Below, piece by piece: positions 5,604 through 43,961 of a stretch of DNA of 64,000 bases. This DNA comes from Candidatus Poribacteria bacterium (GTDB taxonomy: Bacteria > Poribacteria > WGA-4E > PCPOR2b). Every line of letters begins with the position of its first letter. The stretch's first letter is position 1. The DNA lies in contig OZ220744.1 in NCBI GenBank assembly GCA_965116925.1, forward strand, positions 4,640,001-4,704,000. Reading direction: 5' to 3'. Both the position numbers and the translations under genes were made by a program. The notes under the pieces are model-generated. The model had not been told where the DNA came from. It worked only from the letters and a program-made list of their open reading frames with translations, and searched no databases.

Positions 5604-5658
5604 GTTCCAATTCTATAATTCCCTTTTCTCAAACTCATTAATACGGAGGTATAAATCC

Positions 5659-27392: not shown

Positions 27393-27425
27393 TATCGTAT
27401 GAAACTGTTCCGAATCGTTGTCAAT

Positions 27426-27533
27426 TATAGTAGATTTTAGAATTAATGAGACACTCCAAATCGGCGCAGTTGGAAACAGCGCATACCAAACATGGAGAGC
27501 GAAAGTGTCTGTTTATTTTTTAAACTCACTATA
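27426..27533. mobile_element. MITE family B, short copy
   Basis: TATAGTAGATTTTAGAATTAATGAGACAC...CTCACTATA. Confidence 0.7.
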
Positions 27534-27593
27534 ACAATCATTTTGTAGATTCATGTTTAGCCAATACCGTATTGAGATCTTGAATCTCTGCAC

Positions 27594-28967
27594 CTATGAA
27601 ATTCCCAACTTTTCCATCTTGAAACGGAGGGTGGAATAGGGGATACCGAGTTTTTTTGCGGTCTGACGGCGATTCCATCGGTTTTCTTCAAGTACCTGCA
27701 AGATCCACTCGGACTCGTTCTTGCCCGCTAATTGGTCAGATTGTGATAGCAGCTTTGCCGATACACCTTTTTGTATGTTGACATGTTCCGCCCCAATCAG
27801 CGAAACCTCCGGCGGACAAAGAGTAGCAGAGCACTCAACAATATTCCGCAACTCACGTACATTCCCAGGGTATTGATAATCCAGAAGGGACGATTGTGCT
27901 GCCTCTGAAAACCCTTCAAAGATACGTCCATTTCTAGCGGTGTACGTCCCCAGAAAATGGTCAGCCAACGGTAGAATATCTTCGGGACGTTCCCGAAGCG
28001 GTTGCAGGTGAATAGAAAAAACGTTGAGGCGATAGTATAGATCGTCGCGGAATTGTCCAGATTCGACAATGTGTGCGGGATCCTTGTTGACCGCACTAAT
28101 AACACGTTCTTGGACGGAAATCTCCTGAGTGCCACCAACAGGTATCAGTGTCCGGGTATCAAGAATCCGTAGTAGCTTCGCTTGTGTGTGGAGTGGGAGG
28201 TCCGCAATTTCATCCAGAAAAAGTGTGCCACTGTTTGCCATCTCAAAGTAACCGGGTCTATTCCTCGTAGCATTAGTGAACGCTCCTTTGACGTGACCAA
28301 AGAGTTCACTTTCGATCAGTGTCTCTGGCAACGCTGAACAATTAACAGCAATAAACGGACACTCTTCCAAAGAGGATTGACGATGAATTTCCCGTGCCAC
28401 CACCTCTTTTCCTGTGCCAGTTTCGCCCGTGAGGAAAATCGTATCAACATTTGCTTCAACCGCTTGCCGGATGCGTTCTCGCACCTGTTGTGTGGCTGAA
28501 CTATTTCCCACAAAGCATTGATTTTTTATTTGAAAGTTCTTACGTGCCTGTACTCCCTTGGGAGTCTCGCGTGGGTTGCAGTGGCTCCGATGTGATCTGC
28601 CCAATCGTCTCCCATTCTCATGTCCCGCATTGATATTGGGAAACTGAATTGATTGGGGTAAAACGTCCCTCGCCTCCAGCCGGAAGGCTTCAATTACCTT
28701 CCTCACGGTATCATTTCCAGAGATGAGCACAACCGGCGTTTCTTGCCCGTTGTGCTGAACTTTTGCCAAGAATTCAGTGTCGTTGATGCCGGGCATACAG
28801 AGATCAACGAGAACCAAGTCATAATGCTGCGCGTTAACCTTCTTTAGGGCAGTATGCCCATCGCGAACAACTTCAACTTGATGCCCTAAATTGCACAAAT
28901 AGTCTTTCAAGGTCCCACAGATGATTCTTTCATCGCCAGTCAACAGAATGTACAATGAATTTTCCAT
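27594..28967 (-). CDS. NtrC-type sigma54-dependent activator (REC-AAA+-Fis HTH), atypical
   Basis: GETGTGKE, ESELFGH, GAFTNA, LFLDEI, FRDDLYYRL, PGNVREL, C-terminal HTH. Confidence 0.92.
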   Translation of the reverse strand: MENSLYILLTGDERIICGTLKDYLCNLGHQVEVVRDGHTALKKVNAQHYDLVLVDLCMPGINDTEFLAKVQHNGQETPVVLISGNDTVRKVIEAFRLEARDVLPQSIQFPNINAGHENGRRLGRSHRSHCNPRETPKGVQARKNFQIKNQCFVGNSSATQQVRERIRQAVEANVDTIFLTGETGTGKEVVAREIHRQSSLEECPFIAVNCSALPETLIESELFGHVKGAFTNATRNRPGYFEMANSGTLFLDEIADLPLHTQAKLLRILDTRTLIPVGGTQEISVQERVISAVNKDPAHIVESGQFRDDLYYRLNVFSIHLQPLRERPEDILPLADHFLGTYTARNGRIFEGFSEAAQSSLLDYQYPGNVRELRNIVECSATLCPPEVSLIGAEHVNIQKGVSAKLLSQSDQLAGKNESEWILQVLEENRWNRRQTAKKLGIPYSTLRFKMEKLGIS

Positions 28968-29023
28968 CTTTATCCCTTCCTTTTATGTACGGTCCCTTAT
29001 CGCTACGTTTATCTTTGAAAAGT

Positions 29024-29290
29024 TATAGTGGATCATAAAAACAGATAGACACTTTCGCTCCCCGTGTTTGGGAGGCGCTGTTTCTAGCTGTGCCGATCAG
29101 TGCGGTTAATGAAGATTAAAAAAATAATTCGGTAATTTGTTATGGACACCGGCGCGGTTGAAAACCGCGCCTACCGTGTGTTTCGAGGAAAATCGGGATT
29201 ACCGATTTAAATACTTAAATCTCATCAAACCGCACCTACCGTTCTCCTGTTTGGTAGGCACTGTTTCCAACTGCGCCTACCGGGGTCATA
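29024..29290. repeat. Family B / REP-like composite repeat
   Basis: Near-identical block to positions 48-170; GGTGCGGTT..AACCGCACCTAC-type hairpins; right boundary approximate. Confidence 0.6.
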
Positions 29291-29366
29291 GCCTAGATTG
29301 TCACGCTCCATTTCCTAGCGAGTCCGAAATCAACGGTTGAATGGACTCACTTGGAAATTTCTGGAG

Positions 29367-29660
29367 TTACCTTTTTTTCTTGGATGAGCCACTTTTCGGG
29401 GGACGCAGCCTGACTTCCTTATCCTCGAAGAACTGTTCCAATGCACGGTTAATCACCTCCGAGATCTGCTGCTGTTCCCAGTAGGCGTATCCCCGCAGTT
29501 TGGCGATTAAGTCCACATGAATGCGATATGTCTGGCGCTTGGTTCCGATGGTCCCCGTGTAGTCGCTTGAGAATAGCTCACTTCTCCCGTTCAAAGGCGG
29601 TGAGTTGTTCTTTGCCTTGCTGGAACGCGCTTTCTGATTCATATTCATTGTCTTTGTCAT
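29367..29660 (-). CDS. Small ribbon-helix-helix (CopG-like) DNA-binding protein
   Basis: KRQTYRI strand plus two helices (LIAKLRGYAYW, ISEVINRALEQFF); GGAGG RBS. Confidence 0.65.
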   Translation of the reverse strand: MTKTMNMNQKARSSKAKNNSPPLNGRSELFSSDYTGTIGTKRQTYRIHVDLIAKLRGYAYWEQQQISEVINRALEQFFEDKEVRLRPPKSGSSKKKR

Positions 29661-29724
29661 AATAAACCTCCAAATGGAGATGGAATTGGTTCAAAAACCT
29701 GATCACTCCTAAGTTGCAACAGTA

Positions 29725-29794
29725 AGGATAACAACCTATAAAACAAAAAGTCCAGTCGTCTTTAGGGCATCTGGACGTAACATGTCCAGACGCC
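29725..29794. promoter_or_regulatory. Conserved promoter/operator module copy A
   Basis: Minus-strand TGnTATCCT; CCAG 21 nt away; palindrome TCTGGAC-N7-GTCCAGA. Confidence 0.7.
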
Positions 29795-29840
29795 TTCAAA
29801 AACGGGTTGTTCATATAGAATAAAAGAGTAAGGCACTAAG

Positions 29841-29874
29841 AGAAACCGAGTTTTCAAGAAAAAACTCGGTTTCT
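29841..29874. repeat. Palindromic repeat copy 3
   Basis: Reverse orientation of 4742-4775. Confidence 0.85.
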
Positions 29875-29910
29875 GCTACACAAGACCTACTACTGCCGAT
29901 TGCCATGAGA

Positions 29911-29980
29911 AGAATACCAACTTACAACACAAAAACTCCAGCCATTTTTAGGGAGTGTAGACATAATATGTCTACACTCC
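29911..29980. promoter_or_regulatory. Promoter/operator module copy B with perfect 29-bp palindrome
   Basis: GGAGTGTAGACATA-A-TATGTCTACACTCC (29952-29980); minus-strand TGnTATTCT at the same spacing as copy A. Confidence 0.75.
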
Positions 29981-30150
29981 TTCAAAAACAGTTGCACATT
30001 GAACCCACGGGCGTTTACACTATAAATTGCGTCAGATAAGCTTATTGTGTTCGTTACTATTCCATTTTAGATGTTCCATTTGCAAGCTTAGGATGCTGGA
30101 GACCTGTTTTACAATTTCCCATAACATAGCTTGCGACAAGGAGGAAAACA

Positions 30151-30324
30151 ATGATACTCCAAACGATTGATACCGCAGAACCCAACTTTCCCATCAATAT
30201 CTTTACAGCCGAAGAGGATACCCCAGAAACCGGCGAGTCCGATTGGCTTCCCCTCATGTGTTGTAGTTACTCGAGTGCTCCTTTTTGGATCGACTCCATC
30301 TGGGAAACCGACGTTGATGAGTAA
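30151..30324 (+). CDS. Putative RiPP precursor peptide, 57 aa (not in ORF track)
   Basis: AAGGAGG RBS; MILQTIDTAEPNFPINIFTAEEDTPETGESDWLPLMCCSYSSAPFWIDSIWETDVDE; 70 nt upstream of co-oriented rSAM/SPASM. Confidence 0.75.
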   Translation: MILQTIDTAEPNFPINIFTAEEDTPETGESDWLPLMCCSYSSAPFWIDSIWETDVDE

Positions 30325-30394
30325 GCAGTAACGAGTGATGCGCTGCATATGAAAACCGTGGTGCATCACTCATTATTCAATTGGAGGCTTTCAA

Positions 30395-31744
30395 ATGAAA
30401 TTATCCCAGTTTACCGTTGTCCTTAATGATTATCCGGAAACAGACCATCACCTGTTGTATCACACGCTGTCTCGCGCACTCATTGAAGTTGACAAGGCGG
30501 GAGGGGATGTGTTACAAAATCTATCAACAGATCCCCCCACCGATGCACGGGCTTTGACTTTCCTCAAGGAACTTCAGACGCAAGGGTTTATCGTTGAAAA
30601 ATCGATTAACGAGGGGGAACGTTATCTCGAATACCTGAATCAGAGCACTTCTCAGCCGGGGGGTGAGTTGAGCGTGACTTTGCTGACGAACTTGCAGCGT
30701 TGTCCGCTCGCTTGCAGTTATTGCTATCAGAAAGGGACACATACCGGGGAACGTTTGGCGGGCGATCTGTCCGAAGAGTGCCTTGATTTTATCAAGAGGC
30801 ACTGCTTAAAACTAGGTGTCGAGCGGTTATTTATCAGCTACTACGGGAGTGAGCCACTTTCTAACTTGAAGGCGATTGTTTCAACTGCGACTGAACTTCA
30901 GAGGTTTTGCCGAAAGCAGGGCATCCACTTCCGGTTCGGGATGGTGACAAATGGCGTACTCTTGACACGGAAGGTTGTTGAACAATTGCTTCCGCTCGGA
31001 TTTGCTCAAGCACAGATTACTATCGACGGAAATCAAGAGACGCATGATGCCTCGCGCCCGTTTCAGAGTGGCAAAGGCACCTATTCCACGATTATGAAAA
31101 ATCTGTCTCAATACGCGGGCCTCATCCATACCACCGTCCTCTGCGTCCTTGATGAATCCCGGATTGATGCGGCATACGAGTTGGTTGACACTTTAGCCTT
31201 GAAGGGTTACTCCCAAAAGCGGGTCCAGATGACTTTCTCACCGGTTATGCCGACATACGACAATGAAACTGTCGAGGCGGCACAGCTGTCCCTAGATAAG
31301 GCACAAATGTTGATAACAGAGAAAAAAATGGCAGTTGAAGTTGCGAAACTCTCGATTTATGCCGCAAAGAAGGGGTTACACGACGATCTTCGTCCTCAGC
31401 ACACATGGTGTGCCATGCAGCACCACGATGGACGGAATATCACCTTGGATCCCTCTGGAAAGATCTATACCTGTCCGACGTTTATCGGCCGGGATAAAAA
31501 ATATGAGGCGGGGCATATCTCTGGGGAGATTGGTGGGATTGATTTGGTTCTCAAGGAGCAGTACGTCCGTTCAGAGCAGTGTCTCTCTTGCCAGTATCTC
31601 CCCATCTGCGCCGATTGTCGCGCCGATGCTCTCTACCAGACGGGAGAGATTACCGAGGCAAATTCAAAGGAAGAGGTCTACGATAGTATTGTGCCTCTGT
31701 TGGTCAAGGCGCACTATGAATCCTCTAAGAATAGGGCTATGTGA
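30395..31744 (+). CDS. Radical SAM/SPASM peptide maturase-like enzyme
   Basis: CPLACSYC, YYGSEP, TNG, TIDG..H...R; SPASM WC...G.IYTC...CLSCQYLPICADC; ~90-aa N-terminal RRE-like extension. Confidence 0.9.
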   Translation: MKLSQFTVVLNDYPETDHHLLYHTLSRALIEVDKAGGDVLQNLSTDPPTDARALTFLKELQTQGFIVEKSINEGERYLEYLNQSTSQPGGELSVTLLTNLQRCPLACSYCYQKGTHTGERLAGDLSEECLDFIKRHCLKLGVERLFISYYGSEPLSNLKAIVSTATELQRFCRKQGIHFRFGMVTNGVLLTRKVVEQLLPLGFAQAQITIDGNQETHDASRPFQSGKGTYSTIMKNLSQYAGLIHTTVLCVLDESRIDAAYELVDTLALKGYSQKRVQMTFSPVMPTYDNETVEAAQLSLDKAQMLITEKKMAVEVAKLSIYAAKKGLHDDLRPQHTWCAMQHHDGRNITLDPSGKIYTCPTFIGRDKKYEAGHISGEIGGIDLVLKEQYVRSEQCLSCQYLPICADCRADALYQTGEITEANSKEEVYDSIVPLLVKAHYESSKNRAM

Positions 31745-32051
31745 TAGTGGATCCTAGAATTAATGAGACACTCCAAACCGCCCCGGTTTGCACCCAGGCC
31801 CAGTAGGTTCGGTTTCCTAACCAAACCGGCCTTCTACGCAACCTACTAGACCTAGCATGGCTTCTATAACTAGTTTTCCGTCCCCACAAGAGTCAAGCAA
31901 GTTTTGTTGGATTCAAGGTTTTTGCCTAAGATTCGGTGCGGTTGGAAACCGCACCTACCGGGGTCATAGCCCGATTTTCCCATCCCCGGTAGGCGAGGTT
32001 TCCTAACCTCGCCGATTTGCAGTGTCCAATTAATTCTAAAATCTACCATAG
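31743..32051. mobile_element. MITE family B copy containing GTAG-type REP hairpins
   Basis: Inverted ends ATAGTGGATCCTAGAATTAAT / ATTAATTCTAAAATCTACCAT. Confidence 0.65.
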
Positions 32052-32078
32052 TACGAAAGACCCGATTAGCTTATACAA

Positions 32079-33683
32079 ATGTCCAAAATCGATACCCTCC
32101 TCAAATTTATTGCCTATCAAAAGCAACACCCCCAAGCCAACGACAAAGAAATTGCCCAAGGGATTGGAATGTCAGCGCGACATGTCAGCCGGTGCAGAAA
32201 AGAGGTGAACCTTCTCAAACACCAGTTGGCTGAACCAACCTTGCAACCGGGACAGATCCAATTTATATTGTCACTGCTGAACCGACGGGAACCGGATCAG
32301 CAGGAGATTGCCCAACAGCTTCAAAAGCAGATGGGGGTCTCCTACACCGGAAGCCTTCGTGCCACGCGCCCCAATGAGGAGGCACCTGTTAGCTGGCTCG
32401 AAATCGGCGAGTTGATTCCAGTTGAAATGGGGGCTTTAGACCGCTTGCACCCAGTACTAAGTTTCTGGCTGCAAAACCTGTGCTATGATCCCCTCCTGAT
32501 GTCTCACCGAAATGGCGAAATCGAAGGACGGCTCGCAACAGGTTGCGAGGCGGTGCAAGGAAATTCGGAGTGGCATCTGACCTTGAGAAAAGACCTGCGT
32601 TGGAACGATGGAAAACCGATTACCCTTGAAGAGGTGATCGCGGCGTTTGCTGCGAGCCGCATCGCGCCGATTATCGCAGAGATGAAACCGGATGGCAAGG
32701 ACCAACTTCGAGTTCAACTTACTCAAGAGGACCCGTTCTTTCCACTTCGTCTGCGCAATATCTCCCCACTACCTTCCCACGCGTCCCAACCCTACCGTGT
32801 GATCTCAGGTCCCTATCGACTGAAGTATTTCCGTCCGGATGCCATGACCTTTCGCTTTGAGCCGAATCCAGATTACTATCGTGAGGGAAATCCCCACATT
32901 GATTGGTTGACCGTAAGGCGCTTCACACTACCCGCCAATGCGGTTAAGGCAGTTGAAAATGGGACACTGGATCTGCTTTTTGTCCCTTTTTATGCGATGC
33001 AGTCCCTCTACCAATTCCCAACGACGGTGCCTTGTCAACAGTGGCCCTTTTTTGAAGATAACTACTACGCCCTATTCCTCAACCGCTATCATGGACCTCT
33101 TTCGGACAAAAAGAACTGTAGGCTGCTTAAAGGAGCCATCGATTATCAGACAATCAACCTCTACCTGCGCATGGGACAGGTTGTTGAGGAAGAAAATCTC
33201 CCATCACTTCCTCACTCCCCTTTTGACATTCGGATTGCCTGCTCACGCGGCAGCTTTCGCTATTTGGCTCATCTCATCGGAAAGTCAGCGGGTTCTTCTG
33301 TGGTGAATCCTATCTCTGTCAAAGGGGAGATGCGGGAGGAGGCGGATGCCTTTTTAACGCAGTTCTTTTTCGGTTTTGGATACAGCAATCTTTCGCAATT
33401 CTTCCACTCCGACGGAGAACACAACTTTTTCGGCTACTCCAGTCCCCAAGTTGATGAGATGCTCTCTCAGCTCAACGGAATGTCGAACCCAAGCGCAAGA
33501 AGTAGGATTGGGCGGCAGGTATTGTCCCTCATACAGGAAGATTTCGCGGCGATCCTGTTGGCACCCTGCTTCCAATATACACTCTCGCCGTTAGAAATCC
33601 AGTTCGACGATAGCCTCACCGATACGATCGATCTGATTCAAAACATGAGCCAACTCACCGTGGAACGTCACCGGACCGGTTAG
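32079..33683 (+). CDS. HTH + family-5 solute-binding-domain protein (SgrR-like architecture)
   Basis: DKEIAQGIGMSARHVSRCR HTH; LRKDLRWNDGKPITLEEV, SGPYRL, FEPNPDYY SBP5 motifs; no signal peptide or lipobox. Confidence 0.8.
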   Translation: MSKIDTLLKFIAYQKQHPQANDKEIAQGIGMSARHVSRCRKEVNLLKHQLAEPTLQPGQIQFILSLLNRREPDQQEIAQQLQKQMGVSYTGSLRATRPNEEAPVSWLEIGELIPVEMGALDRLHPVLSFWLQNLCYDPLLMSHRNGEIEGRLATGCEAVQGNSEWHLTLRKDLRWNDGKPITLEEVIAAFAASRIAPIIAEMKPDGKDQLRVQLTQEDPFFPLRLRNISPLPSHASQPYRVISGPYRLKYFRPDAMTFRFEPNPDYYREGNPHIDWLTVRRFTLPANAVKAVENGTLDLLFVPFYAMQSLYQFPTTVPCQQWPFFEDNYYALFLNRYHGPLSDKKNCRLLKGAIDYQTINLYLRMGQVVEEENLPSLPHSPFDIRIACSRGSFRYLAHLIGKSAGSSVVNPISVKGEMREEADAFLTQFFFGFGYSNLSQFFHSDGEHNFFGYSSPQVDEMLSQLNGMSNPSARSRIGRQVLSLIQEDFAAILLAPCFQYTLSPLEIQFDDSLTDTIDLIQNMSQLTVERHRTG

Positions 33684-33754
33684 TAATAGTTGCTAGCAAC
33701 ATTTACTAATAATCGGGCGAATCGCTTCAATGACTTTTTTAACATTTGCCGTTG

Positions 33755-33797
33755 AAAGCCTGATGCTGACTGACTTTGGAGCATCAGCGTTTTCTTT
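33755..33797 (+). terminator. Probable intrinsic terminator
   Basis: CTGATGCT...AGCATCAG stem followed by CGTTTTCTTT. Confidence 0.55.
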
Positions 33798-33811
33798 GGC
33801 ACGGTAATTGC
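33797..33811 (+). promoter_or_regulatory. Sigma54 (-24/-12) promoter
   Basis: TGGCAC-GGTAA-TTGC, matching TGGCAC-N5-TTGC with GG-N10-GC spacing. Confidence 0.75.
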
Positions 33812-33912
33812 CCCTACTTGAGATTGTCCCGAATCAAAGATTCGGAAGAGTTCTATCTCTAACAGCAGAAGTAGATTGCTTGCTTCTGCAAATCCGAAAG
33901 GAGTTACTCATA

Positions 33913-34110
33913 ATGTTACGGAAAGCATTGATACTCGGAATGGTTTTCATTTTCGCACTGAGCCTATTGGCCGTGTCAATGATTACATGTTTTACCCATG
34001 AAGCAGAGGCACACGACTGGCAGCACCCGGGCGTTCACTGGAATTGCGGGGACGACGGGGTTTTCCACTTTGATCCAGGCTTCGCTGGCTGCACTTGGGA
34101 AACACATTAA
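33913..34110 (+). CDS. Secreted His/Cys-rich small peptide, paralog 1 (65 aa)
   Basis: AAAGGAG RBS; signal peptide ending AEA; mature HDWQHPGVHWNCGDDGVFHFDPGFAGCTWETH; paralog at 39468. Confidence 0.85.
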   Translation: MLRKALILGMVFIFALSLLAVSMITCFTHEAEAHDWQHPGVHWNCGDDGVFHFDPGFAGCTWETH

Positions 34111-34122
34111 AATTGGGCCTCT

Positions 34123-34164
34123 TCGTTATGCTAAAAGCCTATGGCGAGGCTTTTAGCATAACGA
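34123..34164. terminator. Perfect 18-bp hairpin after peptide 1
   Basis: TCGTTATGCTAAAAGCCT-N6-AGGCTTTTAGCATAACGA; conserved at 39710-39751; no U-tract. Confidence 0.7.
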
Positions 34165-34211
34165 CCTACCTGCTTTACCATCTGTTTGGTCCTAATTTGC
34201 TTGGTCCTAAG

Positions 34212-34532
34212 TACCTTGATTTCATCCAATGAATGCGGGGTTCTATACATTTCTCAAGCGTCCACAAATGTAGGCCGGCATTGAGCAGAAGCCGAGTCAA
34301 AAGGGCACCAACAGACTCCAGAAACCTTTTGACCGCAAAAGAGGCGAAATTCGCTCATTTTGCCCCTTTTTGCCTCATTGCTGAAAAGTTGGATCCCTGT
34401 CGTAGCAAGGGTGGAAAAGGTTCGCTGTGGAAATCTTGACCCTTTGAGATTGCTTGATAATGCACCGGCACTGGGTTGATTAGCCTTTGACAGATCAATA
34501 ACACCCTTACTTGCTTGGACAAAAATTAGGTA
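34212..34532. mobile_element. Possible IS remnant with imperfect terminal IRs
   Basis: TACCTTGATTTCATCCAA / TTGGACAAAAATTAGGTA; absent from the homologous position after peptide 2. Confidence 0.45.
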
Positions 34533-34622
34533 TTTACAAATGACTCTAGATGAACACTCCTCCCCGTAATGAAGCGATTACGTTGCCTTCCTACTCCGAA
34601 GGAGGGCAACATTTGAAAAGAG

Positions 34623-34780
34623 TAGGACTTACACGTTTTAGTAGGGAACAACAATTGTCGTTCCCTACAGACATCTTATAGGGCCTCTGCTGTAGTTGCT
34701 CGTTTCTTAATCCCGATGTATCGGGGCGGCGATAAATCCCCGAACTACAAAACCTTGAGCGTTCAACTGCGTCAGTCCTA
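34623..34780. mobile_element. MITE family A
   Basis: TAGGACTTACAC...TGCGTCAGTCCTA with AAGAG duplication. Confidence 0.75.
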
Positions 34781-34986
34781 AAGAGAATAGAATGAACAAA
34801 AGGTTAGCGAAAAACATCCTCCAAACGATTGGTGGTGTTCTCGCGCTAATAGCTTTTCAGAAAATATTTGCTAATTACGGATTATGAAGAAGGCATGAAG
34901 CGGATATTGGCAAAGCAGATACAGCAAATCCTTGAACGAGAAAAACAACCTAATCTAACCTCTACTGTTGCACAATCCACCTCCCA

Positions 34987-36690
34987 ATGAAACCGTTCTC
35001 CCAGAAAACTTCCTCAATTTTTTTTGCCGTGTGTTTATTCGTTGTTGCAAGTGCATCTCGATTGTTCTCTCTGGGGGCACACTGGACCTCTGATGAGGTT
35101 GGGTGGCTAGACCATAGTACGGTGTTTATGGCCGCAGTCGAGATGGGTGCCTTTTCAGAAACTCTGGTCACTTTTCATCCCGGTGTCATAACGATATGGC
35201 TTGCTGCCCTCCGCACCTTTTTTACCGAACCGCATATAAGTGTTCAAGGTTTAGCGTTAGCCCGGTGGTTCATCGGTGTCGCCCTGTTAAGCGGAATTGG
35301 TGTAGCAGCGATGCTGCTGTATCGATTGCTTGGACGTTGGGTTGCGGTCATCGGTGCGACGTTTCTGTCCTTCTCTCCACTCTTTTTAGCCCAATCCCGT
35401 CGCGTCCACACCGATGCCTTGGCGTCGATGTTTGTCCTGTTGACAGTCCTATCCCTCCTACTCTATTGTGGGGCACCCCAAAAACGCCGTTACCTTATCG
35501 GTTCTGGAATTGCATTCGGTCTAGCCTGCCTTGCCAAAAGCAACTCCCTTATTCTGCTCTTGTGGCTGCCTATCTGCTTCGTCCTGTTTCGGAATCGGGA
35601 GGAGACGTGGCGGCAGTTCTTTCTCCGGGGGCTTGGAGGGTGCCTCTGTTTCCTGAGTTGCACGCTACTCACCGTTTTCGCGCTGTGGCCCCTCTTTTGG
35701 AATCCCGTCTTTCTGATGTTTGGGGTGTGTCTGTTAGGTGTCACGCTGCTTGCGGATCGGGAGTTACAGAAAGGGGCACATGGACGACTCACCCTATATT
35801 TGGTATCGGTGGTGGTGGTAGGTGTGGTATCCGGCTATATGGTCCGAACCGTATGGCGGGTGTTCGATGGCGTTGCGTGGGCGATTACCACACCGCATAA
35901 CGTCGAACACTTCTTCCTCGGACAGGTGTTATATGACCCCGGCTGGCTCTTCTACCCGTTGGTGCTCTGTACAGAGACCACGCCGTTAACCCTTCCCTTA
36001 GTATTCGCTGGGTGTCTCTTTCTGTGGAGGAAACGCCATCAGGAAGGGTATGCGCGACAGTTTCGGATAGCACTCGCGTTGGTGGCGGTTGTCCTACTGT
36101 TCACCCTCTGTCTCTCGCTGACAAGCAAAAAGTTTAGTCGATATCTGCTACCCGCTTTCCCAATTCTGGAGATACTTGCCGCCATCGGCTTTTTTGAGTT
36201 TCTTAAATGGGGTTACTCCTATATCGACTCCCGTTTTGGGACCGAGACAAACTCCCAAAAACTCACCTTTTCTATCGTGACCCTCCTCTGTCTCTTCCTG
36301 ATCCAAATCCTGCCGGTCCTACGGCTTCACCCCTACTACGGCACCTACTACAACCTCTGCTTCAAACTCACTGATATCAGAAAAATTATCACAGTTGGCG
36401 CAGGTGCGGGGTATGATCTTGCGGCAAAATACCTAAATAGGAAGCCAAATGCACAAGCGCTACGGGTTCACACCTTTCCACCAAGTGCCCAATTCTTTTA
36501 TCAATACTTTATTGGACAGTCCTCCTGGTCCGAATCAGGTGAAGTGGCCGTCCCAGATTATGAGGTGGTCCATCTCCGCGAATCCCAAGCGGGATGGGTG
36601 CCGCAAACGGGAACGCTCAACGGACAGCTAGAACACGTGATAACCCTCAACGGCATTGACTATGTTTGGATTTATAGGATACCACGATAG
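34987..36690 (+). CDS. GT-C membrane glycosyltransferase (ArnT/PMT-like)
   Basis: WTSDE, HPG, SRRVHTD, RYLLP; many TM segments. Confidence 0.85.
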   Translation: MKPFSQKTSSIFFAVCLFVVASASRLFSLGAHWTSDEVGWLDHSTVFMAAVEMGAFSETLVTFHPGVITIWLAALRTFFTEPHISVQGLALARWFIGVALLSGIGVAAMLLYRLLGRWVAVIGATFLSFSPLFLAQSRRVHTDALASMFVLLTVLSLLLYCGAPQKRRYLIGSGIAFGLACLAKSNSLILLLWLPICFVLFRNREETWRQFFLRGLGGCLCFLSCTLLTVFALWPLFWNPVFLMFGVCLLGVTLLADRELQKGAHGRLTLYLVSVVVVGVVSGYMVRTVWRVFDGVAWAITTPHNVEHFFLGQVLYDPGWLFYPLVLCTETTPLTLPLVFAGCLFLWRKRHQEGYARQFRIALALVAVVLLFTLCLSLTSKKFSRYLLPAFPILEILAAIGFFEFLKWGYSYIDSRFGTETNSQKLTFSIVTLLCLFLIQILPVLRLHPYYGTYYNLCFKLTDIRKIITVGAGAGYDLAAKYLNRKPNAQALRVHTFPPSAQFFYQYFIGQSSWSESGEVAVPDYEVVHLRESQAGWVPQTGTLNGQLEHVITLNGIDYVWIYRIPR

Positions 36691-37132
36691 GCTGAATGGG
36701 GAGGTAAAATAGCCTATATAAGTTGATTTCTAACGAGCACAAAATTATTGTCTGAATCGCGGATTAACCAGATGACGCGGATTGCGCGGATTCATGTATG
36801 AATCAAGATTTAAGGATTTACAGGATACTCCTCAGCCCCTGAACTAATGTTAGGAGCGTTGAGGATTCGCTAGGTAAATGTAGGGAACGCAGATCTGCGT
36901 TCCCTACGATGCCCCAAAAGGGTAGGCGTATCAGGAGAAGGATTTCCGCAGCCCAAACCCACAGTGGGAGAGGCTGCCTCGCCTCAATGTATACGCTATC
37001 GGTCTCATTAGCGATTCAGACACGTGCCACATGTCGCCCCGCTGGGGCTAAATGAACCAACGACCCTGTTCCCATTTTCACCCATTGGCTCATGTTAAGA
37101 AATCGTGCAACAGGGATCTGGGATGGAAGAAA

Positions 37133-37164
37133 GAAACCGAGTTTTCAAGAAAAAACTCGGTTTC
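37133..37164. repeat. Palindromic repeat copy 4
   Basis: GAAACCGAGTTTTCAAGAAAAAACTCGGTTTC. Confidence 0.85.
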
Positions 37165-37190
37165 AAACCTCAAATACCTAAAAACCTACG

Positions 37191-37973
37191 ATGAATCTGA
37201 TTAAACTCCTATCTACCGATTTTTTCACCGGTCAAATCTTGTTCTCAGGGAAGGGGTTGCTCGATATCCTGTGGTTTCTCATCCGCAACCCCCAAGTAAA
37301 GTCTCTAAGACTCGCTGTGCTCATCCTGCAGCTGATCCCCAAATATACAAAGGTGTCGGTGAAGCGACTGATAAATCTCTACCGCTTGACACAAAAGGTA
37401 AACAAACTGAGATTACCCGGAGATATAGTCGAGTGTGGGGTGTGGAATGGCGGATCTGCCGCCATGATGGGGGTAGCGGACCGAGACGATGAAACCTCCG
37501 GCAAAGTCAGGAAGTTATGGCTATTTGATTCGTTTCGTGGGCTGCCACCGCCAAGCAACAGAGACGGAAAACAGGCAAGGGAAACCTATTTTCAAGGGTG
37601 GTGTCACGGTGAGACGGAGAAGGTTAAACAAATTTTCCGGCGATTTCGGCTCTCGTTACAGCATATCAACATTGTTCCCGGGTGGTTTGATGAAACATTG
37701 CAGACAGCAGATCTTCAAACCATCGCTCTCCTGCATATTGACGCCGATTGGTATGCGTCGGTCAAGATAGTTTTAGAAACCTTATATGATAAAGTGGTTG
37801 AAGGCGGGTTTGTTGTCTTGGATGATTATTGGAGATGGCCCGGATGCCGTGAGGCGGTAACAGATTATCTCAAAGAACATCAGATTCAAGGGGTAGTATT
37901 AAAAAAAGCGGACCTACACGGCGTTTATTTTCAAAAACCGCACCGATGCAGAGGAGAAACAGTCGATAATTGA
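37191..37973 (+). CDS. TylF/MycF-family sugar O-methyltransferase
   Basis: GDIVECGVWNGGS, LFDSFRGLP, GWFDETL, LHIDADWY, LDDY. Confidence 0.9.
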   Translation: MNLIKLLSTDFFTGQILFSGKGLLDILWFLIRNPQVKSLRLAVLILQLIPKYTKVSVKRLINLYRLTQKVNKLRLPGDIVECGVWNGGSAAMMGVADRDDETSGKVRKLWLFDSFRGLPPPSNRDGKQARETYFQGWCHGETEKVKQIFRRFRLSLQHINIVPGWFDETLQTADLQTIALLHIDADWYASVKIVLETLYDKVVEGGFVVLDDYWRWPGCREAVTDYLKEHQIQGVVLKKADLHGVYFQKPHRCRGETVDN

Positions 37974-37975
37974 TG

Positions 37976-38992
37976 TTATCGGTCGATCTGTTTGAGCCGT
38001 CCCCACATTGTAAACTTTTTGCCAGAGGAAGAGACCGAAAAAGGAGAGTTAAACCATGCAGGATTAATGTCATCATGATGGGGATTATTGGTGAGGTTTT
38101 GAAGATTCTTACCATTGACGTTCATCACGTAGATTTCTGCGCCCCCCTTCCTGTAGGACGCGAAGGCAATCCGTTTACCATCAGGGGACCATGAGGGATC
38201 TCTGTCATTCTGGCGATTTTTTGTGAGTCTTCGTTCATTCTGTCCATCGGCATCCATCACGTAGATTTCAAAGTTTTGAAGTTCCCCCTTTCCATCAGAC
38301 GCGAAGACAATCCGTTTACCGTCCGGTGACCATGAGGGATACCAGTCATTCTTTCGATTTTCAGTAAGTCTTTGTTCATTCCCCCCATCGGCGTCCATTA
38401 CGTAGATTTCATAAGTGATTCCAAATTTGTTTTCAAAGTGCCCATCTCTACGGGCACTGAAGACAATGCGTTCACCGTCGGGGGACCATGAGGGATGCCT
38501 GTCATCATCACCATCGGGATTTTTAGTGAGTCTTTGTTCATTTTGCCTATCGGCATCCATCACGTAGATTTCATAGTTAAAACGCCCATCCCTATCAGAC
38601 GTGAAAGCAATCCGTTTACCGTCGGGGGACCATGAGGGATCCCACTCATGCCCGGGATTTTCAGTAAGTCTCTGCTGATTATCCCCATCGGCGTCCATCA
38701 CGTAGACTTCATAAGTGATTATAAGACCGTGTCTAAAGCCATCTCTATTAGAAAGAAAAACAATGCGCTTGCCGTCGGGAGACCATGAGGGGTCCCTATC
38801 ATCGGAAGGATTGTTAGAGAGGTTTTGCTGATTCTCCCCATCAACATCCATCACGTAAATTTCCCAGTTCCCATCCCTCTTAGACGAGAAGGCAATTTGT
38901 GCCTGTGAGTCAACGCATACCATCAGCGGCGTTAGACCCAACACTACAACGATAGCTAAAACCAAATGTCCGAGATTGTCCCTTCGGTGCAT
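37976..38992 (-). CDS. Secreted PD40/TolB-like beta-propeller, paralog 1
   Basis: Repeated EIYVMDADG...RLT...PSWSPDG; signal peptide; GKKFTMWGRLK tail. Confidence 0.9.
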   Translation of the reverse strand: MHRRDNLGHLVLAIVVVLGLTPLMVCVDSQAQIAFSSKRDGNWEIYVMDVDGENQQNLSNNPSDDRDPSWSPDGKRIVFLSNRDGFRHGLIITYEVYVMDADGDNQQRLTENPGHEWDPSWSPDGKRIAFTSDRDGRFNYEIYVMDADRQNEQRLTKNPDGDDDRHPSWSPDGERIVFSARRDGHFENKFGITYEIYVMDADGGNEQRLTENRKNDWYPSWSPDGKRIVFASDGKGELQNFEIYVMDADGQNERRLTKNRQNDRDPSWSPDGKRIAFASYRKGGAEIYVMNVNGKNLQNLTNNPHHDDINPAWFNSPFSVSSSGKKFTMWGRLKQIDR

Positions 38993-39221
38993 CTGTTATT
39001 CCTCCTCTGTTTTCAAATCGTATTTTTTATCCTTTGGGGTTGATAGAGATAAGCTCGTGTTGGCAATTCTTTCCAATTAAAGGGTGGCGTGTGCATAAAT
39101 ATATCTTTTATTACAAACTATTTGAGTAATTTATGCAAAACTGTACCAAAATAAGGCATCAAACAAACAAAATCACTAACATATTCCACCGCGAAACATT
39201 ATGCACGCCCCTCAATTATGA

Positions 39222-39290
39222 AGTATATCAACCAATAACCTTAAAATGCCAGCTAAATTTAAGGGGACTGGACATATTATGTCATAACTC
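39222..39290. promoter_or_regulatory. Promoter/operator module copy C
   Basis: Minus-strand TGnTATACT, CCAG, GACAT-N3-ATGTC at the same spacing as A and B. Confidence 0.7.
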
Positions 39291-39467
39291 TCCCAAAAGT
39301 GACTTGAATTGTTATCGGTTGGCTGGTATTTTATAATTGTAACGGGGCAGATAAATTCGTGAACTGTAAAAGTTGTTCATGCCTGTCCCGAAATTGGAAG
39401 ATTTAGAAGTTCTATCTCTAGCAGCAGAAACCGATTACTTCTGCAAATCTGAAAGGAGTTAACCATA

Positions 39468-39683
39468 ATGTTAAGAAAAGCATTGACCCTCGGAACGGTT
39501 TTCATTTTAGCACTAAGCCTGTTGGCTGTGTCAATGATTACATGTTTTACCTATGACTCAGAGGCAGACCCTGGGCACGCAGGCGATCACTGGGATTGCG
39601 GGGACGCCGGGATTTTCCACCATGATCCAGGCCCGCCCTTGGACTGCACATTTATCCCCGGTGGCCATGTTACTGGAGAATAG
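39468..39683 (+). CDS. Secreted His/Cys-rich small peptide, paralog 2 (71 aa)
   Basis: Near-identical signal peptide, leader and hairpin to 33913; mature DPGHAGDHWDCGDAGIFHHDPGPPLDCTFIPGGHVTGE. Confidence 0.85.
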   Translation: MLRKALTLGTVFILALSLLAVSMITCFTYDSEADPGHAGDHWDCGDAGIFHHDPGPPLDCTFIPGGHVTGE

Positions 39684-39709
39684 ACTTCAGTGGTGCAAAT
39701 CAGGCACCT

Positions 39710-39751
39710 TCGTTATGCTAAAAGTCTTGTCATAGGCTTTTAGCATAACGA
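39710..39751. terminator. Hairpin after peptide 2
   Basis: Same stem as 34123-34164 with a different loop. Confidence 0.7.
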
Positions 39752-40168
39752 CCTACCTGCTTCGCTGGCTGTTTGGTTCTAAGTGGAGTATACGCCAGCC
39801 TATTTACAAATGACCTTAGGTGAGTGTTCCTCCTCTGTTCTCAAATCGGTTTTCTATTCTTTAGGGTTGATACAGGTCAACTTGTTTAGGCAACCCCTTT
39901 CCAATTAAGTCCCGCCTCTGTTGTCTCGTTTAAGAACGGACGGAATAGTTGATTCCTCCGATTTATGCCGATTTATCAAGCAGCCTTGACAAGTCCCGAT
40001 TCTCGGGATGCTCGGAACGGACCTGGAACGGCTTGGTAATGTCTCGATTAGATCGGAACAAATCAAGTCGGAAGTGGCAATTCAGATCATTATCACATGG
40101 AGTCTTCCGACCCTTCTTTGACGTTTATGACCCAACCTCAACAAACATTGTTTTCTCAATAATGGCAA

Positions 40169-41194
40169 TTATTGGTCGACCTGTTTGAGCTGTCCCCATA
40201 TTGTAAACTGTTTGTCGACAGAAGAAACCGACAACGGAGAGTTAAACCATGCAGCATTAATGTCATCATGGCGATTATTGGTGAGGTTCTGCTGATTTCC
40301 ACCATCAGCGTCCATCACGTAGATTTCACGGTTTCCATCTCTATCAGACGAGAAGGCAATCCGTTCACCGTCAGGGGACCAGGAGGGAAACCTGTCATGA
40401 ACGCGATTTTCAGTGAGTTTTTGTTGATTCCCCCCATCAGCGTCCATCACGTAGATTTCAATGTTTACAAGGTCCCCCTTCCTATCAGACGCGAAGGTAA
40501 TTCGCTTACCATCGGGGGACCATGAGGGACCCCAGTCATTCTTTCGATTTTCAGTGAGTCTTTGTTGATTTCCACCATCGGCGTTCATCACGTAGATTTC
40601 ATAAGTGACTGCAAACTTGGTTTCAAAGTGCCCCTCCCTACGGGCACCGAAGACAATGCGTTGACCATCAGGGGACCATGAGGGATGCCTATCATCAAAA
40701 AAGGGACTGTCAGTGAGTCTTTGTTGATTCTCCCCATCGGCGTCCATCACGTAGATTTCAAGAGATTGAGGGATCTTCCCATTAAACGCGACTCTACTAG
40801 ACGCGAAGGCAATCCGTTTACCGTCAGGGGACCATGAGGGATATCTGTCATCATTGCGATCCTTAGTGAGGTTTTGAGGGTTGCCCCCATCGGCGTCCAT
40901 CACGTAGATTTCAGAAGTGAGTCTACCATCTATAGCGTGCCCATCCCTATTAGAGAAAAAGGCAATGCGCTTGCCATCCGGAGACCAAGAGGGGTCCCTA
41001 TCATTAGAGGGATTGTTAGTGAGGTTTTGTTGATTCCCCCCATCGGCATCCATCACGTAAATTTCCCAGTTCCCATCCCTATCAGACGAGAAGGCAATCC
41101 GTGCTTGTGCGTCAACGCATACCATTAGCAGCGTCAGGCCCAAAACTATAACACCAGCTAAAATGAGGTGTGCAAGATTCTTCCTTCGGTGCAT
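40169..41194 (-). CDS. Secreted PD40/TolB-like beta-propeller, paralog 2
   Basis: PSWSPDG repeats; DKQFTIWGQLK tail. Confidence 0.9.
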   Translation of the reverse strand: MHRRKNLAHLILAGVIVLGLTLLMVCVDAQARIAFSSDRDGNWEIYVMDADGGNQQNLTNNPSNDRDPSWSPDGKRIAFFSNRDGHAIDGRLTSEIYVMDADGGNPQNLTKDRNDDRYPSWSPDGKRIAFASSRVAFNGKIPQSLEIYVMDADGENQQRLTDSPFFDDRHPSWSPDGQRIVFGARREGHFETKFAVTYEIYVMNADGGNQQRLTENRKNDWGPSWSPDGKRITFASDRKGDLVNIEIYVMDADGGNQQKLTENRVHDRFPSWSPDGERIAFSSDRDGNREIYVMDADGGNQQNLTNNRHDDINAAWFNSPLSVSSVDKQFTIWGQLKQVDQ

Positions 41195-41235
41195 CTGTTA
41201 TTCCTCCTCTGTTTTCAAATCGCTTTATTATTCTT

Positions 41236-41368
41236 TAGACTTACGCAGTTGAACAGTCAAAGCCCTGTAGCTCGGCGATTCATCGCCGTTGGACACCGTT
41301 ACCAACCCTGGTCTCGGAACGGACGCCCGATGAATCGGGCAACTACAATCTGGAGTGCGTAAGTCCTG
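41236..41368. mobile_element. MITE family A inserted in the leader of TolB-like paralog 2
   Basis: TAGACTTACGCA...TGCGTAAGTCCTG flanked by ATTCTT duplication; leader homology resumes after it. Confidence 0.8.
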
Positions 41369-41533
41369 ATTCTTTGGAATTGATAGAGGTCAGATTGGGT
41401 TGGCAACCCCTTTACGATTAAAAGGGCAATTCGTATTATTATCGTCCGAACTTATCGCCCCTTCGTTGGCGTTTATGAGCTACTCCCGTATGTTTCCGCG
41501 TCTCAGCAAACGCTGTTTTCTCAACAATAGCAG

Positions 41534-42496
41534 TTATCGGTCAATCTGTTTGAGCCATCCCCACATTGTAAATTTTTTGCCAGCGGGAGAGATCGAGAAA
41601 GAAGAGTTAAACCATGCAGGCTCTTCTTCATCCTCGGGATGATTGGTGAGGTTCCGAGGATTACTCCCATCGGCAGCCATGACGTAGACGTCCGGATTCA
41701 AATCCCTCGTCCTATTCGACACGAAGGCAATTCGCTTACCGTCGGGTGACCATGAGGGAGACCGATCAGCATCGGGATGATTGGTGAGGTTTTGCTTATT
41801 ATCCCCATTGGTGTCCATCACATAGATTTCCCAGTTTCTCAGCCTCCCGGAAGTAAAAGCAATGCGCTTACCGTTAGGAGACCATGAGGGGCTAGAGTCA
41901 GAATCTTCATGATGGGTGAGTCTACGCTGATTCCCCCCATTGGCGTCCATCACGTAGATGTCAATGTTCCCACCGCTACTGGAAACAAAGACAATGCGTT
42001 TACCGTCGGGTGACCATGAGGGATCCTCGTCAAAACGGTTATTATTGGTGAGATTTTTAGGGTTGCCCCCATCGGTGTCCATCACGTAGATTTCACTGCG
42101 CCCCTTCCTATCAGACACGAAGACAATCTGTTTACCGTCAGGCGACCATGAGGGGTTCCATTCATCAAAGTCATTATTAGAAAGGTTTCGCTGATTGCCC
42201 CCATCGGCATCCATCACATAGATTTGCCGGTTCCAATCCCTATCATTCCTATCAGCAGTAAAGGCAATCCGTTTACCGTCAGGCGACCATGAGGGATGTT
42301 TATCATCACCAGGATTGTTAGTGAGATTTCGCGGATTATTCCCATCGGCGTCCATCACGTAGATTTCCCAGTGCCAATCCCTATCAGACATGAAGGCAAT
42401 CCGTGCCTGTGCACCAACGGCTACCATCAGCAGCGTTAGAACCAAGACGACAACGCTAGCTGAAACCAAATATGCGAGAGTGTCCCTTCGGTGCAT
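41534..42496 (-). CDS. Secreted PD40/TolB-like beta-propeller, paralog 3
   Basis: PSWSPDG repeats; PAGKKFTMWGWLK tail. Confidence 0.9.
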   Translation of the reverse strand: MHRRDTLAYLVSASVVVLVLTLLMVAVGAQARIAFMSDRDWHWEIYVMDADGNNPRNLTNNPGDDKHPSWSPDGKRIAFTADRNDRDWNRQIYVMDADGGNQRNLSNNDFDEWNPSWSPDGKQIVFVSDRKGRSEIYVMDTDGGNPKNLTNNNRFDEDPSWSPDGKRIVFVSSSGGNIDIYVMDANGGNQRRLTHHEDSDSSPSWSPNGKRIAFTSGRLRNWEIYVMDTNGDNKQNLTNHPDADRSPSWSPDGKRIAFVSNRTRDLNPDVYVMAADGSNPRNLTNHPEDEEEPAWFNSSFSISPAGKKFTMWGWLKQIDR

Positions 42497-42551
42497 CTGT
42501 TATCCCTCCTCTGTTCTCAAATCGGTTTATTATTTTTTGGGGTTGATATAA

Positions 42552-42620
42552 AGTATATCAACCAATAATCTCAAAATACCAGCCAACTTTAAGGAGTCTG
42601 GACAGAATACGTCTACACTC
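42552..42620. promoter_or_regulatory. Promoter/operator module copy D
   Basis: Minus-strand TGnTATACT, CCAG, GAC-N7-GTC at identical spacing. Confidence 0.7.
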
Positions 42621-42672
42621 TCTGGAAAATGGTTGAGATTACATGCAAGAATAATTTATATTGTTATATTGT

Positions 42673-42857
42673 TAGGAGTTACGCACTTCAGTTTGTAGTA
42701 GCGCAATTCATTGCACGTTACCACGGGCGATAAATCGCCCGACTACGAACCTTTATCCCTATTGTAGTTGCCCGATTCATCGGGCGTTGGAAACGGTATC
42801 CTACGGCGATTCATCGCCGAGCTACAGGGCTTTGATTGTTCAACTGTGTAAGTCCTA
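42673..42857. mobile_element. MITE family A
   Basis: TAGGAGTTACGCA...TGTGTAAGTCCTA with TATTGT duplication. Confidence 0.8.
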
Positions 42858-42875
42858 TATTGTATAAAATAATCT

Positions 42876-43091
42876 AAGTTGCTAGTTGTTGTTCCGGTGT
42901 TTGTCTGAACCGTGAAACGAAGCGTAATAGGTAATGCGAGGATCGCAGATTAGGCAATCTGCGCCACGATTAGTAACATTTGCCCGACGACTGGGATTCT
43001 ATAACATAAACCAAGTCGTTAGAATCAGACAGAAAGCGAGTTTTGAAGAAAAAACTCGGTTTATAGTGCTTGGTCTATCAACTAGCAACTT
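42876..43091. mobile_element. Possible third MITE with 13-bp IR, carrying palindrome copy 5 (43031-43062)
   Basis: AAGTTGCTAGTTG...CAACTAGCAACTT. Confidence 0.5.
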
Positions 43092-43151
43092 GCGTTAAAA
43101 TAACGTGATTCTCAACTTTTATAGAAAAATGAATTACATAGGAGGACAACC

Positions 43152-43961
43152 ATGTCAAATATGTCAAAACACGTGACAACCTGTATTCTTGTTGCAACTT
43201 TTTTTACTGCCGTGATTACACCGGTTTTTGGACATGAGCAGCAGTGGATATTGCCCAACTTTTTCTATACGGACCATGAATCTCCTTGGTTGGGTATGGA
43301 GCACACAGCGGGAGATCAACGGTTTGTCTCTGGACATGGGTTAGGAAGCCCTTTATGGATTATCCATCCGGAAGGATGGCGTATGGGACGACCATCATCT
43401 ATTTTTGTTGGTCAGACGAGGACTGTCGGGGAGATAGAACTGCGAGAGCCGGGCACCTATCGAATCGAAACAAACCATCCGGTCCAATATGTGACAGAAT
43501 TTGAGGTAGATGGCAAAAAGAGGTGGGCTGGCAAATCGAAAGACCAACTACCCGGCAAAAAGATTCTCCAGTCGGCACATCGATGGTCTCAGACCACCAC
43601 TTTTGTGACGGTGAAGAAATATACGAAACGTGTTTTGGAACCTGCCGGTGCATTTTTAGAAATCGTGCCAGTAACCCATCCAAACAAGATTTTTGTGGGA
43701 AAGCCATTTGCAGTTCGCGTTCTATCAAGAGGTCAACTGGTTCCGGGCCAAGAGGTTCAAGCTTACTCGGAGATGGACAGCGGACATGACACACCCCTAG
43801 TAACAGTTACCAACGCCGATGGTGAATGTGAATTAACCTTTCCATCTTCCGGTATGTATCTACTAACCGCCCGACTCCGTCAGGATGCCAAAGATTCTTC
43901 CCGCGCCAATATTGATGTATTTAATGTATCAATGCTGGTAGAGGTTAGGAAGAAAAGGTAA
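43152..43961 (+). CDS. DUF4198 (NikM-like/metal uptake-associated) exported protein
   Basis: Signal peptide followed by His; LEIVPVTHP, TNADG, GMYLL. Confidence 0.8.
   Translation: MSNMSKHVTTCILVATFFTAVITPVFGHEQQWILPNFFYTDHESPWLGMEHTAGDQRFVSGHGLGSPLWIIHPEGWRMGRPSSIFVGQTRTVGEIELREPGTYRIETNHPVQYVTEFEVDGKKRWAGKSKDQLPGKKILQSAHRWSQTTTFVTVKKYTKRVLEPAGAFLEIVPVTHPNKIFVGKPFAVRVLSRGQLVPGQEVQAYSEMDSGHDTPLVTVTNADGECELTFPSSGMYLLTARLRQDAKDSSRANIDVFNVSMLVEVRKKR

Follow-up and report, generated by a model that had tools for sequence, protein, structure and literature searches.

What does a protein that joins a helix-turn-helix (HTH) to a family-5 SBP fold sense, and which genes does it control? This question is raised by a putative one-component regulator of a sponge-associated Candidatus Poribacteria bacterium (32079-33683, + strand, 534 aa), encoded in a 64,000-nucleotide stretch of contig OZ220744.1 (hereafter the window, with positions counted from its first letter). 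So far, few ligands of SgrR-type HTH-SBP regulators are known. At this locus a receptor occurs together with a candidate ligand, the enzymes of its pathway and a defined putative operator; thus, both the ligand question and the role of geopeptide-like rSAM peptides become testable in E. coli. In the main texts of a mostly open literature we found no paper on the regulator and its operator or on the two-component cassettes described below, none on the function of such geopeptide-like radical SAM (rSAM) peptides, and none on Poribacteria regulators. The locus is real and conserved, and comparative analysis indicates that its gene probably switches other genes in response to an enzyme-modified peptide.

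Domain Architecture and Fold

The open frame around the gene comprises 537 codons only and therefore leaves no upstream extension. The domain limits of the 534-aa protein are 2-51 for the HTH, 57-85 for a helical linker and about 90-530 for the SBP part, which matches Pfam SBP_bac_5 with an E-value of 8.8e-22. A first structure model, for which 21 close sequences had served as input, was of low quality (pLDDT 50) and was replaced by an AlphaFold model from a 116-row alignment (pLDDT 89, pTM 0.84). Within residues 103-529 of the latter, about 395 align to solved family-5 SBPs with Z 22-25 (best match 5u4o, Z 24.7, rmsd 3.3, 395 aligned), and both lobes are therefore present. Pfam support for the HTH is weak (HTH_PafC, E 0.005-0.095). 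The N-terminal helices are confidently modelled (2-16, 22-29 and 33-51), residues 1-53 match the N-terminal region of a ROK-family protein at a middling Z of 7.8, and the profile of the regulator family aligns over its full length, the HTH part covered as well, with an HTH_11-SBP protein of 636 aa (probability 99.7). The models confirm the fusion put forward in the original prediction, namely a tri-helical HTH joined to a complete, two-lobed family-5 SBP fold.

The lack of a signal peptide also held: hydropathy in the first 60 residues peaks at 0.77 over 11 residues, whereas of the 23 non-HTH SBPs from related loci, 22 reach at least 2.0. So did the lack of a transporter: a scan of 17 proteins between 21039 and 43961 turned up neither an ABC permease nor an ATPase. 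The protein thus shares the family-5 SBP fold with ABC binding proteins such as OppA and NikA, which in contrast carry a signal peptide or lipobox and have a cognate permease/ATPase. Its closer parallels in architecture are SgrR of E. coli and DsvR (Vca0578) of V. cholerae, which combine SgrR_N (PF12793) with SBP_bac_5 and likewise consist of an N-terminal HTH and a cytoplasmic family-5 SBP. However, the protein fails their models, scoring 17.4 bits against SgrR_N (cut-off 24, E 0.005, residues 33-88) and 14.1 bits against NCBIfam PRK13626 (cut-off 476). SgrR acts in sugar-phosphate stress and is accompanied by the divergent SgrS small RNA, whereas the present family is linked to a peptide-GT2-rSAM operon, and the interval 27400-43200 contains no Rfam match, SgrS included, at E up to 0.1. 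Furthermore, in contrast to SgrR and DsvR, the family has up to seven matches per genome and long palindromic putative sites. The SgrR-like architecture that had been proposed stands as a resemblance of domain order, to which the SgrR models do not extend; remote kinship is possible.

Gene Neighborhood and Linkage within the Genus

The RiPP neighborhood that had been proposed for the gene is real. A 57-aa precursor peptide (30151-30324, + strand) with a CC-x-Y core and an acidic tail is followed by a radical SAM/SPASM peptide maturase (30395-31744, + strand) of geopeptide-maturase-like type (TIGR04280, 231.6 bits, cut-off 400). Residues C37, C38 and Y40 of the peptide are invariant and its core is hypervariable between strains at this locus; an Atlas search retrieved no match to it, and NCBIfam gave none at E up to 0.1. 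Divergent to the peptide lies the gene of a 97-aa ribbon-helix-helix-like (RHH) protein (29367-29660, - strand), an assignment with no Pfam match that Atlas scores of 0.88-0.92 leave as a lead only.

Several further features of the window deserve mention. The intergenic segment 31745-32078 consists of genome-wide repeats with hundreds of BLAST matches; its hairpins were on that ground rejected as operators, as was the hairpin at 29841-29875. Interspersed hairpin repeats with hundreds of matches in the genome occupy 27424-27500, 29022-29282, 29841-29875 and 31744-32050. An NtrC-type sigma-54 response regulator (27594-28967, - strand) is found about 400 bp beyond the RHH gene, and a regulator of this sort occurs in two-component cassettes elsewhere. 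Downstream, a 65-aa ORF (33913-34110, + strand) has a signal-like N-terminus and no Pfam match; many regulator copies are followed by relatives of it, which often come after the palindrome element described below. In the alignment of the maturase, the rSAMs of the genus read YYGSEP and more distant relatives YGGEP.

The expected co-occurrence of regulator homologs with rSAM and peptide genes is borne out across Poribacteria. The host genome has six full regulator copies and a match is found in 16 of the 19 other genomes of the genus, these copy numbers being lower bounds from 8-9 candidates scored per genome, and the genome counts taking in kin genomes that are not independent. All 18 rSAM loci of the genus, distributed over 13 of 20 genomes, have a regulator copy downstream at a distance of no more than about 2 kb, one of these loci being broken. 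Similarly, 25 of 26 peptide matches fall in regulator loci, and the remaining one is about 11.5 kb from a regulator. Among the 56 full-length-match regulator copies that were fetched, the upstream region contains a whole rSAM in 17, an rSAM fragment in 7, the peptide only in 10 and neither in 22, so that 32 copies have no rSAM trace. The copies with a peptide and no rSAM, together with those that retain an rSAM fragment, suggest that solo regulators arose from the operon. A separate peptide copy (L101, G015:C1:3987282-3987452) sits behind a palindrome element and a DUF4198 gene; the 14 kb retrieved for this locus contain no regulator.

The tree of 52 intact copies separates a divergent clade F from one large group. 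Clade F loci, known from ten genomes, have the gene order RHH, peptide, GT2, rSAM, regulator, with a GNAT gene behind the regulator in eight of the ten. The locus in the window corresponds to a clade F-type operon minus GT2, which is kept in three sister loci. In genome G085 peptide and regulator are retained and the rSAM is truncated, and the solo regulator clades B and E have been maintained in the absence of a peptide. Four regulator clades share their recognition helix, while that of clade F is different, and the helix-sharing paralog clades differ from one another by clade-specific residues in three SBP segments. One helix combined with clade-specific SBP segments suggests several inputs to a single regulon.

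Nevertheless, the SBP part could be read in another way, as a degenerate lobe that has no small ligand and serves for dimerisation or as a scaffold on which the rSAM enzyme or the acidic precursor at full length would dock. The family evolves fast in the tree and, compared with the HTH_11-SBPs, lacks about 40 residues between 369 and 370 plus shorter segments; moreover, no protease gene was seen that could release a short core. We hold such degeneration to be quite unlikely, given that both lobes are confidently modelled and fit solved SBP structures, several of which contain a ligand, and that clade-specific residues in three SBP segments above a common recognition helix are what different ligands would lead one to expect.

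A Palindromic Element Shared by Regulator Loci

Two operator-like elements separate the RHH and peptide genes, with palindromes centred at 29780 and 29966 as originally noticed. In the first (29724-29830), a conserved -10-like site is directed towards the RHH gene, and in the second (29910-30024, palindrome 29947-29985) -35- and -10-like sites point to the peptide gene. Further copies are found at 39221-39322, upstream of the gene for a secreted PD40 beta-propeller (37976-38992), and at 42551-42665, between a second PD40 gene (41534-42496) and a DUF4198 gene (43152-43961). A profile seeded from the copies in the window recovers 13 elements of about 115 bp in the host genome, ten of which are at most 9 kb, and four at most 300 bp, from a regulator paralog. 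The palindrome of about 38 bp is composed of GT-nnn-GAC, a 7-nt centre and GTC-nnn-AC, and across 92 distinct copies the GT at -11/-10, the GAC at -6 to -4 and their mirror images are near-invariant.

The geometry is equally regular: on one side the palindrome centre is 54-55 nt from the -10-like site, and on the other it is 25-27 nt from the -35-like and 49-50 nt from the -10-like site. With the geometry of CRP as the basis for recognising class-I activators, this spacing would put a bound protein in the class-I activator position at both promoters. A strict sigma-70 scan did not call these proposed promoters. Genes flanking the elements (144 calls, from loci picked largely around the regulator) include 39 PD40 propellers, 26 regulators, 14 peptides, 14 RHH genes, 10 members of a small secreted-looking family and 8 DUF4198 genes. 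Solo regulator copies have the palindrome directly upstream of their own gene; autoregulation from a binding box near its own gene is described for DsvR in a preprint (10.64898/2026.04.01.715812).

With a covariance model the element is detected in 17 of 29 genomes of the family, the same 17 that have a regulator match (an exact pattern, found in 7 of 29, was too strict). All ten clade F loci lack the first palindrome type, and nine of them have another palindrome with the same promoter spacing, in agreement with the different recognition helix of clade F. The palindromes behave like operators of the regulator family. Feedback on palindromic operators, a further element of the original prediction, is favoured to this extent, and the correspondence has exceptions in palindrome-bearing genomes where the regulator is broken or was not found: G143 has the first palindrome type and a broken F-type regulator only, and the F-type palindrome occurs in seven genomes without an F-type regulator match, including the closed G090 and G085.

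Such exceptions are compatible with a different binder, be it the RHH protein encoded divergently or a global regulator at another locus, or with palindromes that hitchhiked with duplicated promoters; in each case the HTH-SBP protein would act elsewhere. In clade A and clade F loci the RHH gene points away from the element, co-duplication can produce co-location, and the symmetric changes at variable palindrome positions (paired in 0.67-0.84, compared with 0.18-0.41 expected) imply homogenised arms whatever the binder. However, a matching RHH is found in 10 of the 17 element-bearing genomes and missing from seven, three of which lack any RHH match, and the element stands directly upstream of solo regulators that have no RHH. 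The fixed-phase invariant bases of the 92 copies tell against neutral hitchhiking. We therefore judge this explanation improbable, and consider it likely that the regulator itself binds the palindrome. An RNA reading of the palindrome was ruled out by its position upstream of both promoter-like sites and by the palindrome core, where G-T is not preferred over A-C (37 vs 30); the negative Rfam search given above also speaks against it.

Other palindromes were noted in the course of the analysis. A second family with the core TTGAAACTA-N-TAGTTTCAA and the same promoter spacing has eight copies in the host genome (G000:C1:3591390-3591679, at L005, and near 2830968, 2831289, 2831510, 4235602, 3500080, 5966560 and 682531), several of them upstream of receiver-less sigma-54 activators or of a WYL regulator beside cas6. 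In the RHH-peptide interval of L005 and L076-L084, two more short conserved palindromes, one just 5' of the RHH start and one near the likely transcription start of the peptide, are candidate RHH sites.

Related Loci in Distant Poribacteria and Other Phyla

The association extends beyond the genus. In another Poribacteria family the rSAM overlaps the regulator (L093), and a second regulator copy of that family has no rSAM (L092). In another class the order is GT2-rSAM-HTH_11-SBP (L095, likewise metagenome locus L208), and a peptide looked for upstream of GT2 in L095 was not seen. In another genus, GT2-rSAM-peptide faces an XRE-SBP fusion (L100, likewise L209). Metagenome loci L201, L208 and L209 repeat all three fusion types. 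At L099, peptide and rSAM lie near a contig end and no regulator was found there; for protein P0133, no genome locus was found. L209 also encodes an 819-aa GT2-rSAM fusion (4870-7326) followed by a 49-aa peptide and the convergent XRE-SBP. In L094 (7809-8342) an N-terminal regulator piece lies directly upstream of a 1305-aa ECF sigma factor that carries carboxypeptidase-regulatory repeats.

We surveyed the best 80 of at least 564 genome and the best 80 of at least 528 metagenome relatives of the rSAM, which gave 157 loci after three Poribacteria duplicates were dropped. Among these best-scoring loci, 34 have a family-5 SBP at most 1.3 kb from the rSAM, and adjacency declines with falling rSAM score (17/25, 15/30, 2/34 and 0/68, in bins of our own choosing). 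Gene-by-gene listing of 23 rSAM loci, 22 with an SBP (52 neighbours scanned), revealed three HTH fusions among the latter, most of the others having a short Cys peptide together with a dCache/HAMP kinase, and frequently a sigma-54 regulator as well. The non-fused SBPs mostly have signal-like N-termini, as in periplasmic types. The common cassette order is sigma-54 regulator, SBP, 25-47-aa Cys peptide, rSAM and dCache-HAMP kinase, sometimes with a TonB receptor before the SBP or an ABC exporter after the rSAM, and the record titles include Spirochaetes, Acidobacteria, Nitrospirota and Omnitrophota. Such Cys peptides, found beside geopeptide-like rSAMs and orphan SBPs at L123, L124, L134, L196, L207, L211, L214, L221 and L222, have no NCBIfam match.

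As in the geopeptide system, short Cys peptides adjoin these rSAMs, and TIGR04280 is the best NCBIfam match of all eight related rSAMs scanned; however, all eight remain under the 400-bit cut-off (190-319) and the peptides match no NCBIfam model. The Poribacteria peptide differs further in its acidic tail and in being accompanied by GT2, GNAT and a cytoplasmic HTH-SBP protein. On comparative grounds the 534-aa protein looks like a one-component version of the SBP/kinase cassette. LuxP-LuxQ is a periplasmic SBP-kinase receptor, and the two-component cassettes similarly pair an orphan SBP with a dCache kinase. In contrast, the Poribacteria locus has no kinase, response regulator, TonB receptor or exporter, and its SBP is fused to the HTH.

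The descent of the SBP part was addressed with two trees, in both of which the HTH_11-SBPs nest among periplasmic rSAM-linked SBPs and the family of the 534-aa protein forms a long branch outside that clade (in the second tree, support labels may have shifted on re-rooting). In a profile test with a control biased towards it, the family scored lower against periplasmic rSAM-linked SBPs than against generic SBPs. A clade uniting it with the HTH_11-SBPs was neither rejected nor demonstrated by the AU test (p 0.24).

Candidate Ligand and Proposed Mode of Action

Taken together, we put forward that the 534-aa protein acts as a cytoplasmic one-component transcription factor. Its HTH dimer would bind the palindrome of about 38 bp, from which two divergent promoters start about 60 bp downstream on either side. 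Bound there, the regulator would govern three kinds of target: the peptide-rSAM operon, the solo copies of its own gene, and a group of proteins most of which are secreted. We infer that the SBP lobe binds the product of the neighboring pathway, the Cys-Cys peptide after crosslinking by the rSAM, possibly also glycosylated where GT2 is present, and that ligand binding would close a feedback loop inside the cell. Most likely, the regulator would be a dimeric activator at the palindromes with the ligand in the SBP lobe as its switch, and a one-component counterpart of the cassettes of periplasmic SBP, dCache kinase and response regulator found elsewhere. To the whole of this explanation, regulator on the palindrome and ligand from the peptide pathway jointly, we assign a probability of about 0.45, as the DNA-binding and ligand claims are correlated; for the peptide-pathway ligand taken separately the odds are roughly even.

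A peptide product is favoured because family-5 SBPs recur beside this rSAM subfamily in two-component and in three fused forms, and because the fused forms occur where kinase and transport genes are missing. Thus, the sensing of the mature RiPP, as first suggested, draws indirect support from the cassettes of other phyla with the same rSAM subfamily, while a matched variation of core and receptor was not seen: in clade A, where peptide diversity amounts to 0.62 in the core, 0.27 in the leader and 0.13 in the tail, the variable SBP segments show no variation that matches the hypervariable core. In an alternative scenario, the regulator binds the palindrome and senses a small metabolite or metal complex, with the peptide pathway as an output. 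Small ligands have been proposed likewise for SgrR-type proteins; family-5 SBPs bind metals, sugars, opines and peptides, and the structural matches of the 534-aa model are mixed. Persistence of clades B and E without a peptide and DUF4198 genes among the putative targets would also be accommodated. The DsvR preprint considers its inducer probably sugar-like and cites glutamate binding by SgrR (10.64898/2026.04.01.715812). However, a small metabolite leaves unexplained both the recurrence of family-5 SBPs beside one rSAM subfamily in several phyla, three HTH-fused forms included, and the retention of peptide and regulator in one clade after loss of the rSAM. As to nickel, first entertained as part of a ligand, the nickel-SBP models score far under their cut-offs (37.6 of 600 bits). 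We regard a small ligand as possible but doubtful.

The loop had been described as quorum-sensing-like, a label that the gene content does not sustain: no exporter, protease or importer was seen among the locus genes of the annotated Poribacteria loci, those of the window and of the F locus included. An intracellular loop reporting maturase activity fits this absence of export and uptake genes better, and quorum sensing by the protein and peptide appears unlikely. The peptide-binding part of RRNPP receptors consists of TPR-like repeats, and Rgg/SHP controls streptococcal rSAM RiPP operons. With Rgg/RRNPP systems the 534-aa protein has in common an HTH and a candidate peptide-binding domain near a small peptide gene, an arrangement outlined for those receptors in PMC8102284. 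In contrast, residues 95-531 have the SBP fold and not a TPR-like one, the candidate ligand is the rSAM product itself, and export and import genes were not seen. The scaffold is in this sense unrelated to Rgg/RRNPP, as had been stated, and the HTH-SBP architecture as such was already known from SgrR and DsvR.

If the peptide is the ligand, the family would add a cytoplasmic peptide-receptor scaffold besides RRNPP, and outside Gram-positives. If the proposal is true, secreted repeat proteins of an uncultured sponge symbiont would also be recognised as a regulon. A broader and more tentative scenario is that of a widespread class of rSAM peptide signals read by family-5 SBPs, in which Poribacteria might have swapped the entire periplasmic chain of SBP, kinase and regulator for a cytoplasmic HTH-SBP protein at least twice (HTH_11- and XRE-type fusions), with direct binding of the crosslinked, glycosylated peptide. 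Sponge Poribacteria would then have multiplied receptor paralogs on one operator controlling secreted beta-propeller proteins.

Regarding the chemistry of the peptide, PapB-like neighbours in the list of NCBIfam matches of the rSAM prompt the guess of thioether formation. When the SBP part was co-folded with the unmodified precursor, the score was 0.01 and the mark 0.32; as the controls were not folded, this result weighs neither for nor against peptide binding. In C. beijerinckii, sporulation and agr expression were altered by disruption of a ranthipeptide precursor and its rSAM, according to PMC8102284. Finally, in two metatranscriptome runs, contigs of relatives were present as small shares only.
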